The position numbers and the translations under genes are program-made. From the sequence record SRR22947727_788: DNA of 64,000 nt. The stretch is one strand, 5' to 3'. This document shows positions 1 through 24,263 of this stretch, piece by piece; within the stretch, counting starts at the first letter, position 1, and the number at the start of each line of letters is the position of its first letter. Below the pieces are notes generated by a model. That model saw only the letters and a program-made list of their open reading frames with translations. It had not been told where the DNA came from and made no database searches.

Positions 1-81
1 CGCGAGGGGGGACTTGAACCCCCACGCCCTTGCGGGCACTGGCACCTGAAGCCAGCGCGTCTGCCATTCCGCCACTCGCGC
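1..81 (-). tRNA. tRNA-Leu(CAG), 3' end cut by window edge
   Basis: Reverse complement GCGCGAGTGGCGGAATGGCAGACGCGCTGGC-TTCAGGT-GCCAG...GGTTCAAGTCC...CTCGCG; cloverleaf with long variable arm, anticodon CAG. Confidence 0.95.
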
Positions 82-215
82 AATGATGGTCGCCCATCAA
101 CCTGCCGAGATTACCACAGGACTAGAGCCCCCAAGCGGGCCAGTCCTCGAAGCTTCATCAGCCAACCGGGCTAGCATCACTAAGCACAACAACCCCATTG
201 CCTGGGAGGTGTCCC

Positions 216-935
216 GTGGGTTTTCTCGACAGTTTTGAGCGCTCAGTGGAGCGTCTCGTCGGGGGCGCTTTTGCCAAAGCTTTCTCCGCGGGAGTTCACC
301 CGGTCGAGATTGTCGCAGCACTCAAGAGAGAGATGGACTCTAGGGCAACCACAGCGTCCAGAACACGCACCGCGGCACCTCATCTGTACTCCTGCAACCT
401 CTCTACCGAGGACCATTCGCGACTTGCCCAGCTCGGAGAGCCCTTTGTGGGTGAAATCGCTCAGGCACTCGCCGACTACGCCGTGCTCCGTGGCTATGGC
501 CTCGCTGACCGTGTGAGTGTCACCCTCGCGATCTCCGGGTCGCTCTCGGAAGGGATGGTGGAGGTCTCGAGCACCCCTGTGGGACGGGTGGTCTGGATTC
601 CCACTCTCACCTGGGACTCCGTTCGCTATCCCGTGGTCAAAAAATCGACGGTCATCGGGCGGGGAACAGATACCGACGTTCACGTTGTCGCCAGAGGTGT
701 CTCCCGGCACCACTGTGAAATCCGCTGGGACGGCAAGCGCGCCGAAGCGGTCGATCTGGGCTCCACTAACGGAACAAAACTGGATGGTGAGCGCATCACC
801 AGAGCCGCCCTTCCGGACCGGTGCACCCTGGTGATGGGCCAGGCGCGTATCCTGTTTGAGGTGGTTCCGCAGGCTGAAGCCTCGTATCGTGCCTTCGCAC
901 ACCACACCCCCACCGGCACAGAGGAGACATCGTGA
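216..935 (+). CDS. fhaA: FHA domain protein FhaA (DUF3662 + FHA)
   Basis: N-term GFLDSFERSVERLV, C-term FHA motifs (IGRG..DV..SRHH, DLGSTNGT); GTG start after GGAGG; first gene of the pknB cluster. Confidence 0.9.
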   Translation: MGFLDSFERSVERLVGGAFAKAFSAGVHPVEIVAALKREMDSRATTASRTRTAAPHLYSCNLSTEDHSRLAQLGEPFVGEIAQALADYAVLRGYGLADRVSVTLAISGSLSEGMVEVSSTPVGRVVWIPTLTWDSVRYPVVKKSTVIGRGTDTDVHVVARGVSRHHCEIRWDGKRAEAVDLGSTNGTKLDGERITRAALPDRCTLVMGQARILFEVVPQAEASYRAFAHHTPTGTEETS

Positions 936-1426
936 GTGAACTAACGCTGTTCCTGCTGCAACTCGCCTTTTTGGGGCTCCTGTGGGCTTTTGTTTTCGCG
1001 ATTGTCTACGCGCTTCGCACCGACCTTTTTGGGCCTCCCCGCTATCGACAGGAGGAGGATGACAAACCCACTGCCAAGTCCTCCCCAGACCAGCCACCAA
1101 CGCTGTCTCCTGCTCCCACCACACCCAGTGGCATAGCCCAGGCCTTGGTCGTGACCTCAGGGCCCAAAGAAGGACTGGAGATTGAGTTGCTTCCCGAGGA
1201 GCAATTCACCATCGGCCGCTCGGGTGATTCCAGCCTGGTGATTAGGGACGATGTCACCTCCACGCACCACGCGCGCTTGATGCTCTGGAATGACCAGTGG
1301 ATGATTCAGGACTTGGACTCGACCAATGGAACGTTCGTGGATGGCAATCGAGTGAGCATCCCCACTCCGGTTCCTCTCAACACACCAGTCAGCGTGGGAA
1401 ACACAACGTTTGAGCTCCGAAAGTAA
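932..1426 (+). CDS. fhaB: Membrane-anchored FHA domain protein FhaB/FipA
   Basis: N-terminal TM helix, FHA motifs IGRS..STHHA..DLDSTNGT; synteny. Confidence 0.9.
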   Translation: MSELTLFLLQLAFLGLLWAFVFAIVYALRTDLFGPPRYRQEEDDKPTAKSSPDQPPTLSPAPTTPSGIAQALVVTSGPKEGLEIELLPEEQFTIGRSGDSSLVIRDDVTSTHHARLMLWNDQWMIQDLDSTNGTFVDGNRVSIPTPVPLNTPVSVGNTTFELRK

Positions 1427-1430
1427 TCGG

Positions 1431-2666
1431 ATGACCTCTGACCAAATCCTGAGTGCCGCGTCCTCCCACATTGGGAAGATTCGCGCCAGCAATCAGGATT
1501 CCGGCTCTGTCGGGCGCAACCTGTTTGTCGTGGCGGACGGGATGGGTGGCCACGCCGGTGGAGATGTGGCGAGCGCGCTCGCTGTGCAGCACCTGTTCAC
1601 ACTGGATCGAACCTACGACACCGTTGAGGACGCTCGCGAGGCTCTGTTCCGCGGGGTCCTCGACGCTGGGGCCGACCTGACGAATGCGGTGGTGGAGCAC
1701 CCGGAGCTGACCGGTATGGGAACGACAGTCAGCGCGATGATTCGGGTCAAATCCCAGATGGTCATCGCCCACATCGGTGACTCCCGGATTTATCGACTCC
1801 GCGAAGGCGTGCTGGAGCAGATCACTGCCGATCACACCTTTGTGCAGCGCCTCGTCGACAGTGGTCGCATTACCCCCGAGGAGGCAGCAGTTCACCCCCG
1901 CCGCAGTGTCTTGATGCGGGTGCTGGGTGATGTGGACGCGGAGCCCGAGGTAGACACCCACATCGTCGATACTCTTCCGGGCGACCGATGGCTTCTGTGT
2001 TCCGATGGCCTCAGTGGTTATGTCTCGGAGAGAGACATCGCAGAAACCCTCCTGACCGTCGATGATGTGGAGCTCGCCGCCCACAAACTGATCACCCAAA
2101 GCTTGAGCGAGGGCGCTCCCGACAATGTCACTGTCGTGATTGTTCGAGTTGCCGAGGGCATCGATACCTCGCCCCCCGCGGAGTCTCGCATGGTCGGTGC
2201 AGCTGCAGGTCCGCTCACCTACGAATCAGGCCCCGTCATGCGCAGGCCTGCCCTTCCCGCACTGTTGCTCCACCCGCTGCGCGCACTGCCCCCGGCGGAC
2301 GAGCACTTTGAGCCAGAAGAGGACTACCTCGAGGAGCTGATTCGCGAGGACAGACGTCGACTGATTCGACGTCGCGTGGTGTGGTCACTTTCGGTAGTCA
2401 TCATCATCAGTGCGCTGGTGGGCGCGGCCTTTAGCGCCTACGAATGGACCCAAACCCGATACTTCGTGGGGGAGAGCAACGGTTTCGTCGCCATCTATCA
2501 GGGTGTTCCCGAGGATGTTGGGCCGCTCTCGCTTTCCACCTTGTTTGAAGAGACCGATGTGTCACTTGACTCTCTCCAGGTGTTCGAGCAGGAAAGAATT
2601 GCGGACTCCTTGCCCGCTGAATCGCTCGAGGATGCCCAGGAAATCGTCGATCGGCTGAGGCGGTGA
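1431..2666 (+). CDS. pstP: PP2C-family Ser/Thr phosphatase
   Basis: NQDS, VADGMGGH, HIGDSR, LCSDGL, DNVT motifs; C-terminal TM. Confidence 0.93.
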   Translation: MTSDQILSAASSHIGKIRASNQDSGSVGRNLFVVADGMGGHAGGDVASALAVQHLFTLDRTYDTVEDAREALFRGVLDAGADLTNAVVEHPELTGMGTTVSAMIRVKSQMVIAHIGDSRIYRLREGVLEQITADHTFVQRLVDSGRITPEEAAVHPRRSVLMRVLGDVDAEPEVDTHIVDTLPGDRWLLCSDGLSGYVSERDIAETLLTVDDVELAAHKLITQSLSEGAPDNVTVVIVRVAEGIDTSPPAESRMVGAAAGPLTYESGPVMRRPALPALLLHPLRALPPADEHFEPEEDYLEELIREDRRRLIRRRVVWSLSVVIIISALVGAAFSAYEWTQTRYFVGESNGFVAIYQGVPEDVGPLSLSTLFEETDVSLDSLQVFEQERIADSLPAESLEDAQEIVDRLRR

Positions 2667-2670
2667 CACG

Positions 2671-4068
2671 GTGAGTGAATCCAGCGTTCCCCCTGTTGCA
2701 CCGGTCACGGGTCGCGTCGTGTTGCGGGTCAAAATGCCTCAGAAGCTTCGCAACCTGGAATTAGTGCTGCTGGTTGTTGCCCTGGGATTGAGTGCGCTGG
2801 CTTTGGCCTTGGTCCAGTGGGGAGCACTGGGCACACTGGATTGGAGCCTGCTCACCTACGCTGCGGGGCTTGCTGGCCTCACTCTTGGTTTGCACCTAGT
2901 TCTGCGCATCGTCGCACGGGATGCTGACCCCTTCATTGTCCCCATTGCCACCATGCTCAATGGGCTCGGCATCACCATGATCCACCGACTCGACATCGCT
3001 GCGGGTTCCAGTGGTTGGGAAGCTGCCGGCGTTCGACAAATGGCCTGGACCGCGGTCGCGTTGGTGATCGCCATCATCGTGCTGATTGTGGTGAAGAACT
3101 ACCGCGTGCTGTTGCGCTATCGCTACTTAGCAATGCTCGCTGGAGTGATCCTGTTGACCATGCCCCTCTGGCCTGGAATTGGACGGACTGTCAACGGTGC
3201 AACGCTGTGGGTCGACATTGGGGGGATGAATTTCCAGCCCGGTGAAATCGCCAAGATTGCCCTCGCTATTTTCTTCGCCGGCTACCTCATGACAGCGAGG
3301 GAAAGTCTCCAAAAAGTAGGAAACACCTTTGCGGGGATTCGCTGGCCACGGGTTCGAGACCTGGGACCGCTGCTCATCGTCTGGGTTGTCGCGATGGGTG
3401 TTCTCGTGTTCCAGCGAGACCTCGGCACCTCGTTGCTGTATTTCGGGTTGTTCCTCGCGATGCTCTACATCGCGACCAACAGAATTCTTTGGCTGGGATT
3501 GGGCGGTGGCCTGTTCGTTGTGGGTGCTGCTGGCGCAGCAAGCCAACTGGGATATGTCCAAGGTCGCCTGCAAGGCTGGCTGGACTCCTTCAACCCCGAG
3601 GTCTACAACGCCCAAGGAGGCTCCTACCAACTGGTTCAAGGCCTCTTTGGCTTTGCTGAGGGTGGCTTCATTGGCGAAGGCTTGGGACAGGGTCAACCTG
3701 ATTTCGTGCCACTGGCCAACTCGGACTATATCGTCGCCGCACTCGGTGAAGAACTGGGAATCTTTGGAGTATTCGCTCTCCTCGCGCTGTATTTGTTGCT
3801 CGTCAGTCGTGGCTTCCGGGTGGGCTTCACCGGCACCGACGATTTCGGGCGCCTGTTGTCCTCCGGGCTAGCGTTTGTTCTGGCCCTCCAGGTGTTTGTC
3901 GTCATTGGAGGAATTACTCGCGTGATTCCGGTCACAGGGTTAACCACTCCCTTCCTCGCTGCTGGAGGTTCTTCCTTGGTGGCCAACTGGATCATCGTGG
4001 CCCTGTTGCTGCGCCTCAGTGACGAGGCGCGTGCCTCGGTTCGCCTTGAAGCGGGTGTTCGAGCATGA
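2671..4068 (+). CDS. rodA: SEDS family peptidoglycan polymerase RodA/FtsW
   Basis: Multi-TM, QPGEIAK, QRDLGT, TGLTTPFLAAGGSS motifs; synteny. Confidence 0.93.
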   Translation: MSESSVPPVAPVTGRVVLRVKMPQKLRNLELVLLVVALGLSALALALVQWGALGTLDWSLLTYAAGLAGLTLGLHLVLRIVARDADPFIVPIATMLNGLGITMIHRLDIAAGSSGWEAAGVRQMAWTAVALVIAIIVLIVVKNYRVLLRYRYLAMLAGVILLTMPLWPGIGRTVNGATLWVDIGGMNFQPGEIAKIALAIFFAGYLMTARESLQKVGNTFAGIRWPRVRDLGPLLIVWVVAMGVLVFQRDLGTSLLYFGLFLAMLYIATNRILWLGLGGGLFVVGAAGAASQLGYVQGRLQGWLDSFNPEVYNAQGGSYQLVQGLFGFAEGGFIGEGLGQGQPDFVPLANSDYIVAALGEELGIFGVFALLALYLLLVSRGFRVGFTGTDDFGRLLSSGLAFVLALQVFVVIGGITRVIPVTGLTTPFLAAGGSSLVANWIIVALLLRLSDEARASVRLEAGVRA

Positions 4069-5510
4069 TCGCGCCTCTGCGTCGAGTGGGGATAGCCGTC
4101 ATGGCGCTCTTCGTCACGCTCTTTCTCTCCGCGAGCTACATCCAAGTTGTCGCCAGTGAGGAGATTGCTGACGACGATCGCAATGTCCGCAAGCTCTACG
4201 AAAGCTTCTCCGCGGAGCGAGGCCAGATTCTTGCCGGCGGTATCCCGATTGCGACTTCCATTCCCGTGGATAACCAATTCCGTTACTTGCGCACCTACCC
4301 ATATGCCGACCTCTATGCCCCGGTTGTCGGCTACTACACGCTGAATCAGGGCAATGCGGGAATAGAAAGCGCTCTCAACCCCGTGCTCACCGGGCGGGCT
4401 AGTTCTCAAATCCTCGACCAACTGACCGCTCTGGTCACTGGCTCCACGCCCGAAGGCGCCAGCGTCCAATTGACCCTCGACCCTGAGATTCAACAGATTG
4501 CCTATGACGCCATGGGGGACCGGCGGGGAGCCGTTGTGGTCTTGGACCCCGCCACTGGGCGCGTTCTCGCGATGGTCTCCACACCCTCCTATGACCCGAA
4601 CCTGCTGGCCGCACACTCCACGTCGTCTGTGCTGGGTGCCTACAACGAGCTCTCCGAGGACCCCGATAACCCTCTGGCGAATCGCGCGATCGCGGGAGAC
4701 CAATACTTCCCCGGCTCCGTGTTCAAAGTACTGATGACTGCTGCGGCACTGGAATCTGGCGACTACACCGCAGAGAGTGAATTTCTCAATCCCGCCGAGC
4801 TCCCACTTCCCCTGAGCACAAAGAGCATTAAGAACTCGGGAGGAAGGCTCTGCGGCGGGGAAGAGACAACGACCCTCGAGGAAGCTTTCCGGCTCAGCTG
4901 CAACATCCCCTACGCCGAGTTGGGTCTGGAACTCGGCGAAACAGCCATCGGATCGATGGCTGACGACTTTGGCTTCGGTGCCACGCTCGAGATTCCACTC
5001 CAAGTGACGCCCAGCAACTTCCCTCGAGGTCTCGATGACGCGCAGCTCATGCTGAGCTCTTTTGGTCAGTTCGATGTCAGGGTCACGCCCCTGCAGGTCG
5101 CCATGCTGAGCGCCGGAGTCGCCAACGGTGGGGTTCTGATGAAGCCCAACCTGGTGGACCAGGTCATTGCTCCCAACCTCCGTGTTCTGCAGTCCTATGA
5201 GCCCACGATCTACTCACGACCACTCAGTCCCCAGGTCGCCCAGGAGATGACCCGGATGATGGTCAACAACGTGAGTCAGGGTGTCGCCAGCGCTGCGAGA
5301 ATTCCAGGCATTAGCGTCGCAGGAAAGACAGGAACAGCGGAGACAGGAATCGGTGATGGTCGCTCATTCTGGTTCACCGGCTTTGCTCCTGCAGAAAACC
5401 CTGAGCTTGTCATCGCTGTGGTCATCGAAGGCTCGAGTACCGAGGGGACAGCGAACAGCGTCGCCTCTCCTGTGGCCAAGACGATCATGGAGGCGGTGAT
5501 CAGCCGATGA
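4065..5510 (+). CDS. pbpA: Class B penicillin-binding protein PbpA
   Basis: SxxK (GSVFK), SCN, KTG motifs; follows rodA. Confidence 0.93.
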   Translation: MIAPLRRVGIAVMALFVTLFLSASYIQVVASEEIADDDRNVRKLYESFSAERGQILAGGIPIATSIPVDNQFRYLRTYPYADLYAPVVGYYTLNQGNAGIESALNPVLTGRASSQILDQLTALVTGSTPEGASVQLTLDPEIQQIAYDAMGDRRGAVVVLDPATGRVLAMVSTPSYDPNLLAAHSTSSVLGAYNELSEDPDNPLANRAIAGDQYFPGSVFKVLMTAAALESGDYTAESEFLNPAELPLPLSTKSIKNSGGRLCGGEETTTLEEAFRLSCNIPYAELGLELGETAIGSMADDFGFGATLEIPLQVTPSNFPRGLDDAQLMLSSFGQFDVRVTPLQVAMLSAGVANGGVLMKPNLVDQVIAPNLRVLQSYEPTIYSRPLSPQVAQEMTRMMVNNVSQGVASAARIPGISVAGKTGTAETGIGDGRSFWFTGFAPAENPELVIAVVIEGSSTEGTANSVASPVAKTIMEAVISR

Positions 5511-19513: not shown

Positions 19514-19723
19514 CTAAAGACCCCTGTCAGCGCGATAAATGGCGACAACAGCGTTCGCGTGGCCGCGTCCAAGGCCGTATTCGTTCTTCAATACCCCAAC
19601 CATTCCCATATGGGGTTTGTCGTGGTGAGCGGAGAGTACGCCAAACCAGTGCGAAACCGGCTGGCCATATTTCTTCTCAATAGAGGGGAAATAGCTCTGT
19701 GGCCCGGTGGCCTTCTTTTCCAC
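19514..19723 (-). CDS. DUF4287-like small protein
   Basis: GPQSYFPSIEKKYG, HM..V..LK.EYGLGRGHANAVV; start set at GTG 19723. Confidence 0.78.
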   Translation of the reverse strand: MEKKATGPQSYFPSIEKKYGQPVSHWFGVLSAHHDKPHMGMVGVLKNEYGLGRGHANAVVAIYRADRGL

Positions 19724-19888
19724 TTCTATGAACCAATCTGTCGCAAGGGTAAAGCCTCTCGAATCAGAATCGGTCTCGTGAGGCCGCGAGCTGAGCGATT
19801 CTGGTGCTTGTTTGGCTACTAAGAATGACCGCCCCGACAACGCCCAGTATCCCGCTCAAAACCTCCGCAACACCGAGCAACCACATGT

Positions 19889-19945
19889 GTGGGGTTCGCC
19901 CTTAGATCGGCTTGTTTGAAGCCCTGTTTCTCGAAATTACAACTA
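19889..19945. repeat. Cassette-boundary repeat R1 (truncated copy)
   Basis: 19896-19945 aligns gaplessly to positions 22-71 of the 84-bp repeat; core reduced to GTGGGG; one TTACAACTA. Confidence 0.8.
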
Positions 19946-19969
19946 TTTTGGGAGTGCTAGCTTTTATGT

Positions 19970-20911
19970 GTGAAGAATAATCGGATTGCCTCGTTGTTCT
20001 CATCGCTAAGTCACAAACCTCTGAACGCCACTGCCGCGTTGAGCCTCCTTGGCATGCTGACGGTCGTGCTCCTCTATGCGGTTGACACGCGGGAAATTCT
20101 CGGGGTGTCCGTGTGGGAGAAGCCCCTCAAGTTCCTAATCTCTGCGACAGTCTATGCAACGACTTTTTCCTGGCTTTACGCCTTCGTCGACAAAGGCAAA
20201 AAGCTTGCATCCCTGATGGGGAGCCTCATCGCAATCATGCTGGTTGTCGAACTCATTGCGATCACAGGCATGGCATCTGTGGGCTCCACGAGCCACTTCA
20301 ACGTATCTACACCGTTCAACATCGCCGTATGGTCTGTCATGGCGACCGCAATCTCGATCGTCTGGGTAGCAACCTTCCTGCTCTCTGCCGGCCTGTGGAA
20401 TTCCGGAAGGATGTCCGCCGACCTTCGGCTTGCGGTCCGATGGGCTATCGGCCTCGGGCTTGCGGGGATGGGCATTGCCTTCACCATGACACCCCCTCAG
20501 CCACAACAAACTCTTCCTGAGAATTGGGCTGGAGTTGCAGGCGCACATACTGTCGGGGCTGCAGACGGTGGGCCGGGTCTACCCTTTTTTGGCTGGTCTA
20601 CTGATGCAGGAGACCTCCGTGTCTCTCATTTTTTTGGCCTTCACGCGCTGCAGGTACTGCCGCTGGTGGCGCTCCTTCTCTCCGTGCTTGTCGCGAGCGA
20701 CAGACTTCGGGTGGCGACGATTACTGGAGTTGCTACGAGCTACACTCTCGTGGTTGCGTTTACCTATGTCCAAGCGTTGCTCGGGCAAACGATCGCCCAA
20801 GCATCAACTCTCGTAGCTTTGGGCAGCATTCTGCTCCTGGGGCTCACCGTTGCAGGTTTTACCTATAGACGCTCTTCGAAAACCACTGCGGGCAATGTTC
20901 GTGGAGCCTAG
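19970..20911 (+). CDS. Cassette 1 cargo: hypothetical multi-pass membrane protein
   Basis: 313 aa; WEKPLKF, GAHTVGAADGGPGLP..GWST..GDLRV.HF.GLHALQ; TAG stop lies inside repeat R2. Confidence 0.8.
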   Translation: MKNNRIASLFSSLSHKPLNATAALSLLGMLTVVLLYAVDTREILGVSVWEKPLKFLISATVYATTFSWLYAFVDKGKKLASLMGSLIAIMLVVELIAITGMASVGSTSHFNVSTPFNIAVWSVMATAISIVWVATFLLSAGLWNSGRMSADLRLAVRWAIGLGLAGMGIAFTMTPPQPQQTLPENWAGVAGAHTVGAADGGPGLPFFGWSTDAGDLRVSHFFGLHALQVLPLVALLLSVLVASDRLRVATITGVATSYTLVVAFTYVQALLGQTIAQASTLVALGSILLLGLTVAGFTYRRSSKTTAGNVRGA

Positions 20912-20984
20912 CTAGATCCACCCGGCCTCACATTGGCTTGTTTGAGGGGCTGTTTTCCAGAATTACAACAATAAATTACAACTA
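20901..20984. repeat. Cassette-boundary repeat R2 (84 bp, att-like)
   Basis: GTGGAGCCTAGCTAGATCCAC...AATTACAACAATAAATTACAACTA; first 11 nt identical to 24097-24107 (tRNA-Ala 3' end). Confidence 0.92.
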
Positions 20985-21054
20985 CCCGACTCAAAGTGCA
21001 GGTCAAAAAAATCTTCGTGAGGCTCACCTTTCCCCGCTGCTTTAGATTTGTCTC

Positions 21055-21483
21055 ATGACCTCATTCAGCATCACTGAGCTTGGCCCACTCTCTTCCTGGA
21101 GAGACTTTGTCGGAGGTTTTCGGCCCGACACAACACGCCCGGGACGACGTGTCGTTGATCACGAGGTCATAGGAGAAGTCATCGGCTTCACCGCGAACTC
21201 TTACGAACCCGGAGAACAGGCTGGTTACTGGCATGTCCATTCTGTTCTCGAAGAGGTCTATATCTTTCTTGAAGGAGAAGGCCAGATGGGGCTTGATTCC
21301 GAGATAGTAGACGTCCACCCAGGGACAGTTGTTCTAGTCAAGCCTGGGGTTATGAGAACGTGGAGATGCAAGCCAGACAGCTCCACAAACTTGAAATGGA
21401 TATGTGTCAGAGCTGGCCAACGTCCGCTCCCGCCGGTGCCAGATGATGCCGAGCCTCTGTGGGGCTTGGAACTTCCGTGGTGA
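21055..21483 (+). CDS. Cassette 2 cargo: cupin domain protein
   Basis: PGE..YWHVH..EEVYIFLEGEG, PGTVV.V.PG..R; ATG 6 nt after TAGATT. Confidence 0.82.
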   Translation: MTSFSITELGPLSSWRDFVGGFRPDTTRPGRRVVDHEVIGEVIGFTANSYEPGEQAGYWHVHSVLEEVYIFLEGEGQMGLDSEIVDVHPGTVVLVKPGVMRTWRCKPDSSTNLKWICVRAGQRPLPPVPDDAEPLWGLELPW

Positions 21484-21488
21484 ATTTT

Positions 21489-21572
21489 GTGGAGCCTAGT
21501 TGGATCCACTCGCCCCTACATCGGCTTGTTTGAGGGTCTGTTTTTGGAAATTACAACTAAAAATTACAACTA
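21489..21572. repeat. Cassette-boundary repeat R3 (84 bp, att-like)
   Basis: GTGGAGCCTAGTTGGATCCAC...AATTACAACTAAAAATTACAACTA. Confidence 0.92.
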
Positions 21573-21648
21573 TGTTTCCGACAGTGCTTGATGGCAATCC
21601 TGTGCAGCTATACCTTCCACAAACGTCACCCGGTTTCACTATCGAGCA

Positions 21649-21885
21649 TTAGGTGACTTTGCGTTTCCGAATCTTGTGGACAACCACAAGCACAACGGAC
21701 AAAAAGATTCCGAATAACCCCAAAATCACTGCAAAGGATGCAAGCCCTAACGCCCAGAACTCCTCAATCAACCATCCGTTTTCGTCTACATACGACCCAA
21801 CACTGTTGTAGTAAACAGCAAGAAGAAAAGCAGAGAAAAATAGACAACAGGAGACAACCAAGAGAGCTTTCACAAAGCGAGTCAT
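21649..21885 (-). CDS. Cassette 3 cargo: small two-TM protein, DUF3955-like
   Basis: 78 aa, TM-GSYVDENGWLIEEF-TM-basic tail; ATG 7 nt after TAGGCT. Confidence 0.7.
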   Translation of the reverse strand: MTRFVKALLVVSCCLFFSAFLLAVYYNSVGSYVDENGWLIEEFWALGLASFAVILGLFGIFLSVVLVVVHKIRKRKVT

Positions 21886-21952
21886 AGCTGCGAGCCTACG
21901 GGAAGAAATTCCTCGAATACGGCCTGACGGGACGAGGCCTGATTGTGATTTG

Positions 21953-22036
21953 GTGGAGCCGAGTCAGATCCAATCGGCCTTAGATCGGCCTGTTTGAGCT
22001 TCTGTTTTTCGAGGTTACAACTAAAAATTACAACTA
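21953..22036. repeat. Cassette-boundary repeat R4 (84 bp, att-like)
   Basis: GTGGAGCCGAGTCAGATCCAA...GGTTACAACTAAAAATTACAACTA. Confidence 0.92.
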
Positions 22037-22179
22037 TTTTCTGGTTTTCCGAGAGTCAAACCGCACATATGCGTCCCCGAAAGTAAATCAATAGCCCTGC
22101 AACAAACCCAAATTCCCACCCAATTGTCCAATACCGAATTATCAGTTTGCTATTGCCGGGCTAGTTCTCGTCGCATGGG

Positions 22180-23544
22180 TTATTCCTGCGGCCCTGATTC
22201 AATTGACCAGAAATTGACGGTGTCCTTAAATGGTGTCTCTGGAGGATAAATCCAATCTGGTACCCCCTCGGAAAGGTCATAATTTTTCATAAAATCCTCA
22301 TACTCATCGTAAAAATCATCCATAGTCATCCCAACGTGCTTTTCGAACGACCCGTGCCATCCCAGCCGCCACGAATCCTCCAAGATGGAAACCATAGTGA
22401 TCTCTGGCGAAGTGATGTGCATAAGATAACGGGCCATAAGGTTCCAGTGATCTACGTCGCACTCTGCTGCATGTCCATTCGCCGTCCCATTGTCCCACTC
22501 CTGACGAGCATCGACCTCTGTACAGGGGCCGCCGGACTGCATCCTCTTTATGTAGGCCACGAATTCATCTTCAAACCAACCGCAGCACGAACCAGCAATG
22601 GCGTATTTCGTCTTAAATATTTGAGACGGCCAGTCCTCTTTGCTAGCGACAATCTCGTCGTACCCTAAGCCGCTTTTTTTAGTCACATCAAACTCGTCAA
22701 AATGATCACGAAGAATCCACCCTGGCGAAAGTTGCGCGGTCCCCTCCATCCACCACCTAGGAGCGAAACCGTCGGGGGGCATCGGAGCATCTGGGCCGTT
22801 CCCCTCAGAACCCTCCTTGCCGAGCTGGTGCGCTCTTTGAACATGGTGATGGTATTCGTGAATTAGCCCGTTGAGCATCCGGTACTGGATCGCTGGCAAA
22901 CCATAAAACTCCAGTTCGTCGGGATTGGATATCACTAACCGGTTATTGCAAAACGAATAGGCGTCGCGAACACGGTCTGGTCCACTGCTAAAGCCACTGA
23001 GGCACGAAGCCCGCTCATTTACAAGACTGAAATCGGGGGTAACGCCAGGTTCAAAGTTGTACTCAAAATACCCCAAGCCATCGAGGCCGTCGACTAGTTC
23101 TCGATTTTGGAAGCTTTCGTCTGGGTTGTAACTTGCTAAAACCCAGCGGTCGTAACCGCCGAAATTATCGATAAGAATATCCATCATCTTAAGGACATCG
23201 CCTCGCCATTCGGGGGTCACGTTGTCTCCAAAGAAAATGTGGAACTCGGGATCCCTCTTGGGTATGTTCATCCCCTCGTTCGCGAGCCACAGACCGTCTT
23301 CGAGAAATTCTTTAGGCAAATCCTCGCCACCAACAGGGCAGTAACGGTGTGTATAGTTTGCCGCTGAAATCTCAGATTCCCTCGTCGGTGGTTCACATGG
23401 TGGTGAAGCTTCGGACGTTGTTTCAGTTGGAGGAGCTGACACCTCGGTCAATTCCGCGGCACTTTCAGACGAAGAATCGTCGCCTGCGCAGCTAGCTAAC
23501 GTGAGACTTGCAACCATGGCCAAAACCGCAAACTTTTTATACAT
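22180..23544 (-). CDS. Cassette 4 cargo: lipoprotein with HExxH (zincin-like) motif
   Basis: MYKKFAVLAMVASLTLASC lipobox; IHEYHH then WWMEGTA; SD GGAG; promoter TTGAAC-N17-TACTTT (23611-23583). Confidence 0.75.
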   Translation of the reverse strand: MYKKFAVLAMVASLTLASCAGDDSSSESAAELTEVSAPPTETTSEASPPCEPPTRESEISAANYTHRYCPVGGEDLPKEFLEDGLWLANEGMNIPKRDPEFHIFFGDNVTPEWRGDVLKMMDILIDNFGGYDRWVLASYNPDESFQNRELVDGLDGLGYFEYNFEPGVTPDFSLVNERASCLSGFSSGPDRVRDAYSFCNNRLVISNPDELEFYGLPAIQYRMLNGLIHEYHHHVQRAHQLGKEGSEGNGPDAPMPPDGFAPRWWMEGTAQLSPGWILRDHFDEFDVTKKSGLGYDEIVASKEDWPSQIFKTKYAIAGSCCGWFEDEFVAYIKRMQSGGPCTEVDARQEWDNGTANGHAAECDVDHWNLMARYLMHITSPEITMVSILEDSWRLGWHGSFEKHVGMTMDDFYDEYEDFMKNYDLSEGVPDWIYPPETPFKDTVNFWSIESGPQE

Positions 23545-23729
23545 AACGCTCCGCCCCCGCACTAAGTCAAAAATTCGGTGAAAAAGTATCACGGCCGACC
23601 CACCAGTTCAACCCTTTGAACTGCGGGTTAGAGGACCGTTTTGGGCTAGCGGGTGTTGTTATTGGCGCTATTGAACATTTACCCGACCCCCGGAAAAGGC
23701 CGGTAGGTACACCCCCAAGGTAAATCCTC

Positions 23730-23813
23730 GTGGGGCCTATTTAGATCCACTCGGCCTTAGATCGCCGTTTTTGGGCCTCTGTTTTTCAAAATTACAACTA
23801 AAAATTACAGCTA
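23730..23813. repeat. Cassette-boundary repeat R5 (84 bp, att-like)
   Basis: GTGGGGCCTATTTAGATCCAC...AATTACAACTAAAAATTACAGCTA. Confidence 0.92.
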
Positions 23814-23894
23814 TTCGACATTCTTGAAATCCCGTTATTGTGACGCGCGGTCTTCGATCGAAGTTGATTCTTTATCCACCGGCAGAGTGGTTGC

Positions 23895-24089
23895 ATGCTT
23901 TGGTGGATCGCAATGATTGCAATCGGCGTGTGGATGGCCATGAGTGGCTTTACGAAATCGAACGCGACACCGTTCAAATACCTTTTGGCAAGGGCAGCGT
24001 TGGTCTGGAAATCCAAAGCACACAGCTTCTTAGGTTTCTCAGGTGTAGTAGCTGCTCTAGTTGGAGCGTTTCTCCTGATTAGTAAATAA
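23895..24089 (+). CDS. Cassette 5 cargo: small hydrophobic membrane protein
   Basis: 64 aa with two hydrophobic segments; fills the space between R5 and tRNA-Ala. Confidence 0.6.
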   Translation: MLWWIAMIAIGVWMAMSGFTKSNATPFKYLLARAALVWKSKAHSFLGFSGVVAALVGAFLLISK

Positions 24090-24097
24090 TTTCGTCG

Positions 24098-24170
24098 TGG
24101 AGCCTAGGGGAATCGAACCCCTGACCTCCTGCTTGCAAAGCAGGCGCTCTACCAATTGAGCTAAGGCCCC
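24098..24170 (-). tRNA. tRNA-Ala(TGC)
   Basis: GGGGCCTTAGCTCAATTGGTAGAGCGCCTGC-TTTGCAA-GCAGG...GGTTCGATTCCCCTAGGCTCCA; CCA not encoded. Confidence 0.97.
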
Positions 24171-24189
24171 TCATATATTTAGTTGTGCG

Positions 24190-24263
24190 TGGGGCTACCA
24201 GGACTTGAACCTGGGACCTCTTCGTTATCAGCGAAGCGCTCTAACCGCCTGAGCTATAGCCCC
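24190..24263 (-). tRNA. tRNA-Ile(GAT)
   Basis: GGGGCTATAGCTCAGGCGGTTAGAGCGCTTCG-CTGATAA-CGAAG...GGTTCAAGTCCTGGTAGCCCCA. Confidence 0.97.

Follow-up and report, generated by a model that had tools for sequence, protein, structure and literature searches.

How single genes come to be lined up at the end of a tRNA gene, each set off by a copy of the same short repeat, is the question raised by a locus in sequence record SRR22947727_788. In the 64,000-nucleotide stretch of this record that was analysed (here called the window), five genes alternate with five direct repeats in a series that runs up to a tRNA-Ala(tgc) gene. The array is modular and linked to tRNA-Ala. Its units, here called cassettes, are bounded by a short core that is also the end of the tRNA, they recur in different combinations in genomes of the genus Pontimonas and in metagenomes, their presence is polymorphic, and they have been transferred horizontally. 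We hold, with moderate confidence, that such arrays are stacks of integrase-less, mostly single-gene integrative cassettes that would be moved in trans by a lambda-type integrase.

The array and its repeat

A sequence-only covariance model was built from the five repeats and run with cmsearch over both strands of the window. All five were recovered on the + strand (R1 to R5, Table 1), with E values from 2.9e-14 to 1.9e-28, and there was no sixth, the remaining matches (E >= 2.8) being noise. An earlier note on this DNA, made from its letters alone, had placed five same-strand repeats here, and its positions agree with those of the search to within 1–7 nt. Open reading frames (ORFs), Pfam and ARAGORN also bore out its description of one unrelated gene per repeat, of the kinds it named, in a series ending at the tRNA-Ala 3' end. 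The core-to-core units measure 1026 (counted from the truncated R1), 588, 464, 1777 and 367 bp, the cargo genes are oriented +,+,-,-,+, and the GC content falls from ~57 % to ~50 % across 21–24 kb.

The repeat is ~85 nt long and consists of an 11-nt core and a ~74-nt arm, of which only the core is tRNA-like. R2 and R3 open with GTGGAGCCTAG, identical to 24097–24107 at the end of the tRNA, and the first bases of the full repeats are either this sequence or a variant differing from it at one or two bases. The layout is GTGGAGCCTAG-(variable)-ATCGGCTTGTTTGAG-NNN-CTGTTTT-N5-ATTACAACTA-AAA-ATTACAACTA-T, in which two direct ATTACAACTA sites lie at positions 62 and 75 from the core, a distance of 13 nt. 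In its sequence, the ~74-nt arm resembles that on the P' side of an attP of lambda type. The earlier note had explained the repeat as a duplicated tRNA 3' fragment left by integration; this holds for the 11-nt core, but the remaining ~74 of the 85 nt are an element-type arm. R1 is a short form with a single ATTACAACTA and is part of cassette type K02, which is found with both one-site and two-site arms. In contrast to the truncated copy in the window, the K02 arm is complete in metagenome locus L105.

No conserved secondary structure was detected. RNAalifold predicted 0 pairs for 92 aligned copies, and single-sequence folding z-scores ranged from -1.07 to +1.27 over both strands. Hence, an attC-type single-strand pathway is unlikely, and the earlier note was right to describe the repeats as free of attC hairpins. 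A weak terminator-like hairpin followed by a T-run is predicted in R1 (19909–19923), and the T-run is conserved across all arms. In the region as a whole, terminator-like sites numbered 8 vs 5.1 in shuffled sequences and promoter-like sites 3 vs 3.5, neither being above chance.

A further module of ~40 nt is found at the right ends of the unrelated types K04, K10, K24, K25 and K28 (for example in L137, L123, L128, L118 and L116). It is made up of a perfect hairpin, AAAACCCCTGTATTTACAGGGGTTTT, which is terminator-like in both directions, and then CTACTACTC or GTCTATCTC right before the core.

Distribution of the arm

Genome-wide statements are based on 101 related genomes, 38 from Pontimonas and 63 from outside the genus. 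The arm model matched 14 of the 38 and none of the 63, with 1–3 copies per genome that were clustered and all in one orientation. In G015, which is complete (1.76 Mb), the two copies are 613 bp apart, directly beside tRNA-Ile/tRNA-Ala, and the paired ATTACAAC word was found nowhere in this genome outside the array. Over the genus, 13 of the 16 matches to the paired word are at arm positions, the other three being one-mismatch matches at about the control level. Metagenome contigs were collected by one exact-pattern scan, which gave 46 contigs, and 63 de-duplicated loci were mapped. A tRNA lies downstream of the array in 34 de-duplicated loci, and in 33 of these it is a tRNA-Ala that is encoded on the other strand and meets the last cassette with its 3' end (32 tgc and 1 ggc).

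The ggc case, L137, has a two-cassette array that abuts tRNA-Ala(ggc) at 3498–3571, the end of which is GTGGACCTGAG; this sequence suggests a secondary target with an imperfect core. In the exception, L010 (G027:C101), a tRNA-Met follows a K23-like cassette (929–1003 in the repeat-forward direction, 169–243 in the stored locus). The contig is 1.2 kb long and comes from a genome with 10 % contamination, and the tRNA-Met may be cargo, a rearrangement or a misassembly. Two divergent cassettes stand at tRNA-Ala in L194 (G033:C4, 113–1137), with arms that the model barely detected. The first of these arms has 17 nt in common with the tRNA and two TCAGACTAT words at positions 65 and 77. Going by such arms, the true arrays may be longer and commoner than the model shows.

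The weak hairpin of R1 and the T-run common to all arms could be taken as signs that the repeat is a structured RNA or a terminator, or an intergenic repeat like repetitive extragenic palindromes (REPs) or MITEs (miniature inverted-repeat transposable elements). However, neither the alignment nor the comparison with shuffled sequences revealed a structure or an excess of terminator- or promoter-like sites, and the copies have a single orientation and are not dispersed. Their clustering at tRNA-Ala rules out a dispersed repeat of REP/MITE type, and explanations of this kind taken together have next to no credence with us.

Combinatorial arrays and transfer of cassettes

Complete core-to-core units numbered 74. 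They range from 341 to 2917 bp, mostly contain one ORF, include both gene orientations and cluster into 30 types; the longest arrays have five units. Cassette order is permuted between arrays, which are thus combinatorial. The array of the window, K02-K18-K08-K19-K01->tRNA, can be set beside K01-K03-K02-K09->tRNA (L126), K01-K08-K02 (L112), K08-K02-K20 (L111), K22-K13-K02 (L105) and K02-K23-K24->tRNA (L128). A second set of arrays has K06 in common, namely K06->tRNA (G002), K06-K11->tRNA (G015), K06-K13->tRNA (L122) and K06-K03-K25 (L118). K01, which adjoins the tRNA in the window, is the distal-most cassette in L112, L126 and L129. Even where the chromosomal flanks are 97 % identical, as between the window and L128, the distal K02 is common to both arrays and everything nearer the tRNA is different.

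Cassette boundaries were examined by eye in four types (K01, K02, K06 and K08). In each, the similarity between copies extends to the last base ahead of GTGGAGCC and is lost beyond it, irrespective of whether the next feature is an arm or the tRNA.

The identity of cassettes was compared with that of the chromosomal flank beyond tRNA-Ile, using pairs with diverged flanks. Cassette and flank identities were 94 % and 71 % for K02, 91 % and 71 % for K01, 96–98 % and 81–82 % for K07, 92 % and 68 % for K09, and 94 % and 69 % for K11. As the cassettes are more alike than the diverged flanks, they must move between species. Pairs of close relatives, such as the window and L128 (K02 99 %, flank 97 %), are uninformative on transfer.

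Empty, one-cassette and two-cassette sites

In G018, the site is empty. Here, the conserved left-flank gene for a membrane protein continues into the end of the tRNA and takes its stop codon from the core's TAG (L192, about 617–619); in the window, the TAG stop of the K02 cargo gene (20909–20911) likewise falls within the following core. One cassette (GNAT, K06) is present at the site in G002, and in G015 the same GNAT cassette is joined by an MFS cassette nearer the tRNA. The same pattern of one more cassette, with other cargo, is seen when G035 is compared with G007.

Polymorphism was sought by aligning the Logan contigs of three runs to the region. One contig of run X1 joins 20900 to 21489 and so skips exactly 588 nt, which is the K18 cupin unit (20901–21488). 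The joint is within the core, where 11 nt fit either side, and the depth of the skipping contig was 301.7, that of the contig containing the unit 231.6. We infer that this is no chance join, because 11 shared nucleotides are too few in a 31-mer assembly graph. The same K02-to-K08 junction is present in a loose end of run X7. A second joint in X1, 21573 to 24095, has too little support (depth 6.55, side 27) to be interpreted. The K18 indel is located within the array, so the tRNA is not the sole point at which units enter or leave.

These data also bear on the earlier note, which had looked to relatives for different genes between the same repeats, gained or lost precisely at the core. Both were found, the former in the 30 cassette types of genomes and metagenomes and the latter in the series from G018 through G002 to G015 and in the 588-bp skip of X1. 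Two patterns that it had set against its proposal were not seen: both copies in G015 belong to the array rather than being scattered over the genome, and content and order differ among relatives. Its picture of units integrated one after another at the tRNA was supported in part, the internal K18 indel and the permuted orders speaking against entry at the tRNA alone.

How the cassettes may move

We propose that a cassette consists of the 11-nt core, then a P'-type arm, then cargo up to the next core. It would exist for a time as a circle, for which the core of either the tRNA or an arm already in place would be the partner in recombination. The enzyme, a tyrosine integrase of the heterobivalent type, would act in trans and come from an element that most cells presumably do not harbour. 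Recombination at the 11-nt core would add, remove and reorder cassettes and would permit their passage between species.

An element with an integrase of its own is found at the same tRNA-Ala core in G012:C65 (Table 1). Its genes encode a 418-aa tyrosine integrase (Pfam E 1e-18), a GNAT-like protein and a 619-aa protein containing seven repeats of the DUF4379 treble-clef zinc finger. Like the cassettes, it combines the 11-nt core with two direct 9–10-mers 13 nt apart, ~50 nt from the core; here the word is GTAGCCTAT, placed at 66 and 79 relative to the core. Two more GTAGCCTAT words, also 13 nt apart, are just upstream of the integrase gene. The element thus differs from the cassettes in its integrase, in having arm sites on both sides and in its word, the cassettes carrying ATTACAACTA on one side. 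A G012-like element was also seen in a loose end of X1, directly after K01 and a core, between the array and the tRNA. Together with the arms of G033, there are three arm words (ATTACAACTA, GTAGCCTAT and TCAGACTAT) with one geometry and one core. They would look like the attP arms of related heterobivalent integrases that differ in arm specificity, a reading modelled on lambda-type integrases. The G012 integrase had one relative among viral contigs (26 % identical), and the nine relatives found in 401 genomes of the family (28–45 % identity) are in other genera and uninformative.

That integrase-bearing elements use the same core in G012:C65 and in the X1 loose end would also be expected if the units had arisen by accretion and decay, as immobile fossils of integrase-bearing tRNA-Ala islands reduced to one gene. 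The truncation of R1 and the mutated cores of some repeats are in line with such decay. Tandem integration, partial-tRNA repeats and degenerate remnants are known for tycheposons (10.1101/2020.12.28.424599) and for cis-mobilizable elements (CIMEs; PMC5704250). However, the 30 cassette types include no integrase fragments or backbone remnants, and the units are small, with bodies that extend from the end of the arm to the core. They also recur in permuted order in species with flanks ~70 % identical, and one of them is polymorphic within a sample. Fossilization is, in our view, distinctly unlikely as the origin of the arrays, and the cassettes are better regarded as mobile units of the kind proposed above.

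Several results weigh against an integrase acting in trans. The window and all array loci lack a recombinase homologue detectable by tblastn with four tyrosine and three serine recombinase queries, a test that is insensitive to very distant integrases. In each of G015, G002, G007, G035 and G001, PF00589 matched just two Xer-like proteins, far from the array. The extra integrases of the genus are on contigs without an arm, and of the 18 regions concerned only G012:C65 has the core. The arm was not found in IMG/VR, where three DNA patterns gave four loci in which the model matched just the pattern part, and it was unmatched in phage and plasmid collections. A cognate integrase, too, failed to turn up in the genomes of the genus, in the array loci and in the viral, phage and plasmid collections. 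Sites for a P-side arm were not found either, ATTACAAC-like words in cassette bodies numbering 25 vs ~21 in shuffles. Finally, the arms are mosaic and track neither neighbouring cassette well. The identity of their left halves is 0.80 for pairs with the same downstream cassette (n=9) and 0.78 for pairs with the same upstream cassette (n=16), with a background of 0.71, and the left 37 nt after K08 keep with K08 when the downstream cassette differs. Mosaic arms fit homologous exchange inside the arms at least as well as they fit an integrase, and homologous exchange could in principle do all of the shuffling. In some comparisons, the whole arm moves with K08 and K06, and the R3 arm is identical ahead of K08 in L112 despite a different upstream cassette. 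Resolvase-type genes (PF00239) are present in three of the 38 Pontimonas genomes, G015 not being among them, and none is on an arm-bearing contig; there were no arm or core words near the serine recombinases of the genus.

The cassettes might, then, be exchanged, lost and rearranged once DNA has been taken up, by gene conversion or recombination of the RecA type, with no site-specific enzyme acting today; the tRNA and the 85-nt arms would provide portable homology. Besides the mosaic arms and the lack of a recombinase linked to any array, this explanation would accommodate the one-site and two-site arms of K02, and in streamlined marine bacteria, replacement at conserved slots by homologous recombination is the route favoured in the literature (10.64898/2026.10.07.757358). 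Left unexplained are one arm on 30 unrelated cargos and, in the four types inspected, bodies that end exactly at the core. The joint of the K18 deletion is in the 11-nt core even though R2 and R3 share a longer identical block of 14 nt further along, and the 11 nt of identity at the tRNA are too short for efficient homologous recombination. The match in arm geometry to an integrase-bearing element at the same core is not accounted for either. As the arms are mosaic, homologous exchange or gene conversion within them also occurs, but we think it rather unlikely that it accounts for the arrays without a site-specific enzyme.

The two Xer-like PF00589 matches each in G015, G002, G007 and G035 are the only tyrosine recombinases of these array-bearing genomes, raising the question of whether the host XerC/XerD pair moves the cassettes, in the manner of elements that exploit Xer at dif or of the pdif modules of plasmids. 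The core region also includes a short inverted repeat, GTGGA(G)...(C)TCCAC. However, the site used here is not dif but the end of a tRNA gene, apparently near the replication origin. By eye, the arm contains no dif-like 11-6-11 motif, the Pontimonas dif itself not having been identified for comparison. Direct arm sites that occur in pairs 50 nt from the core characterise heterobivalent integrases rather than Xer. An Xer-based mechanism seems very improbable to us, and a lambda-type integrase supplied in trans is retained as the preferred explanation.

Comparison with known systems

Integrons and clusters of attC sites lacking integrases (CALINs) resemble the Pontimonas arrays in that their cassettes mostly have a single gene and one recombination-site module each, carry diverse cargo, are shuffled in order and are shared between species. 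The Pontimonas arrays differ in several respects: an IntI gene is not found beside them, their repeats have no attC hairpin, the primary site is the 3' end of a tRNA gene and not attI, and the cassettes lie in both orientations without a common promoter (Pc). Like a lambda-type attP, the site combines a core with direct arm sites that occur as a pair. A wider interpretation, in which the locus is a genus-wide integron-like capture platform with tRNA-Ala as primary site, hairpin-less attP-like modules of ~85 nt in the role of attC and a recombinase that would be transient or Xer, is put forward tentatively, as a possibility about which we remain doubtful.

The tycheposons of Prochlorococcus have a tyrosine or large serine recombinase of their own, usually a replication module, and kilobases of cargo (10.1101/2020.12.28.424599). 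Points in common are a streamlined marine host, islands at tRNA genes with tandem elements separated by partial tRNA copies, newcomers that displace older elements away from the tRNA, and niche-adaptive cargo. The Pontimonas units, in contrast, are 0.34–2.9 kb long, are without a recombinase and have an arm of ~74 nt beyond the 11-nt tRNA part.

CIMEs are likewise att-bounded tandem units without genes for integration or transfer at the 3' end of a target gene, and it is presumed that a related integrase mobilises them (PMC5704250). The Pontimonas units fit their operational definition. However, CIMEs are defined as decayed integrative and conjugative elements (ICEs) or integrative and mobilizable elements (IMEs) (PMC5704250), whereas the Pontimonas units are far smaller, show no backbone remnants and put at least 30 cargos on one shared arm, and no sign of decay from an ICE was seen.

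The additive flexible islands of Alteromonas (PMC4898812) are also at a tRNA hotspot, with strain-specific combinations of cassettes, near-identical cassettes in different species and, for some additions, a partial tRNA repeat as marker. A conserved non-tRNA arm or a single-gene standard unit is not mentioned in the part of that paper available to us. Cassette-wise additive islands at tRNA genes are already in print (PMC4898812; 10.1101/2020.12.28.424599). In the literature searched, which did not extend to supplementary files, we found neither this arm nor cassettes of Pontimonas described, and a term search of the main text of the genome paper on the type species (PMC6106888) returned neither 'integrase' nor 'tRNA-Ala'.

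Cargo and flanking regions

The Pfam families found among the cargo are cupin, DUF3955 (two types), EamA, GNAT, TipAS, MFS, multicopper oxidase, acyltransferase_3, isochorismatase, Asp/Glu racemase, DUF4352 and DUF1349; a Pfam scan of representatives found no recombinase in the 30 types. Seven types (K04, K05, K09, K10, K15, K26 and K29) form one lipoprotein family with 26–77 % identity, most members having weak Peptidase_MA matches and six of the seven an HExxH motif. Lipoproteins with HExxH are encoded by K19 and K21 as well, that of K19 being a putative zinc peptidase. The arrays thus store many versions of one kind of predicted surface enzyme.

Defence-type genes are located in larger, incomplete units at contig ends (L103, 1475–3280; L127, 1783–3009; L109, 1073–2458), and comprise the GmrSD N- and C-terminal domains, GmrSD_N with HNH, and a weak AIPR match. 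At the end of the racemase cassette is a fragment, GGAGAATGGGGGATTCGACCCC, with the look of a 3' end from some other tRNA. The places concerned are L001 (G001:C48, 2275–2344), the right end of K27 in L030 (just before the tRNA-Ala core, 11290) and the X7 loose end at window position 24097, and the fragment hints that the content of the racemase cassette once sat at a different tRNA site.

To the right of both tRNAs are genes that we take to be gyrA, gyrB and recF from their ORF translations; on this reading, the locus appears to be near the replication origin. In the nearest genome, G001, the left flank gene is truncated at window position 19700, and contig C48 matches the window only to that point. 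The contigs of G001 break at the array locus, C48 terminating exactly in GTGGAGCCTAG.

Table 1. Coordinates of the array, its flanks and the integrase-bearing element (window positions unless a contig is named)
Feature	Position	Strand	Description
Left flank gene, DUF4287	19514–19840	-	Outside the recognisable array; Pfam E 3.8e-20
R1	19894–19945	+	Truncated, without core; model positions 22–73; cmsearch E 2.9e-14
K02 cargo	19970–20911	+	313-aa multi-pass membrane protein; no Pfam family; type present in 6 arrays
R2	20900–20985	+	Core and arm; cmsearch E 2.2e-26
K18 cargo	21055–21483	+	Cupin; Cupin_2 E 9.5e-10
R3	21488–21573	+	Core and arm; cmsearch E 1.9e-28
K08 cargo	21649–21885	-	78-aa DUF3955 membrane protein; E 1.8e-5
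R4	21952–22037	+	Core variant GTGGAGCCGAG and arm; cmsearch E 8.3e-28
K19 cargo	22180–23592	-	470-aa lipoprotein; lipobox; HExxH at residue 245; no Pfam family
R5	23729–23814	+	Core variant GTGGGGCCTAT and arm; cmsearch E 3.6e-27
K01 cargo	23895–24089	+	64-aa membrane protein; cluster K01, n=8
Shared core, presumed attB	24097–24107		GTGGAGCCTAG on + strand; last 11 nt of tRNA-Ala(tgc)
tRNA-Ala(tgc)	24097–24170	-	ARAGORN; 3' end at 24097 faces the array
tRNA-Ile(gat)	24189–24263	-	ARAGORN; conserved right flank
DUF3566 gene	Beyond tRNA-Ile(gat)		Pfam E 1.2e-24; followed by the presumed gyrA
L146 (G012:C65)	1–4350		Integrase-bearing element at the same tRNA-Ala core; starts exactly with GTGGAGCCTAG

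Implications

Streamlined planktonic bacteria have large pangenomes and few visible mobile elements, and the route by which they gain and lose single genes is an open question (10.1101/2020.12.28.424599; 10.64898/2026.10.07.757358). The array offers a testable unit, one gene with an 85-nt site and defined boundaries, in a cultivable genus in which the empty site and natural one- and two-cassette states are all available. The cargo is of interest in itself, in view of its diversified HExxH lipoprotein family, transporters and GmrSD-type defence genes. If a trans-acting integrase were found, the arrays would represent a second, independent solution to integron-type gene capture, and would supply a simple tool for site-specific insertion in Actinobacteria.

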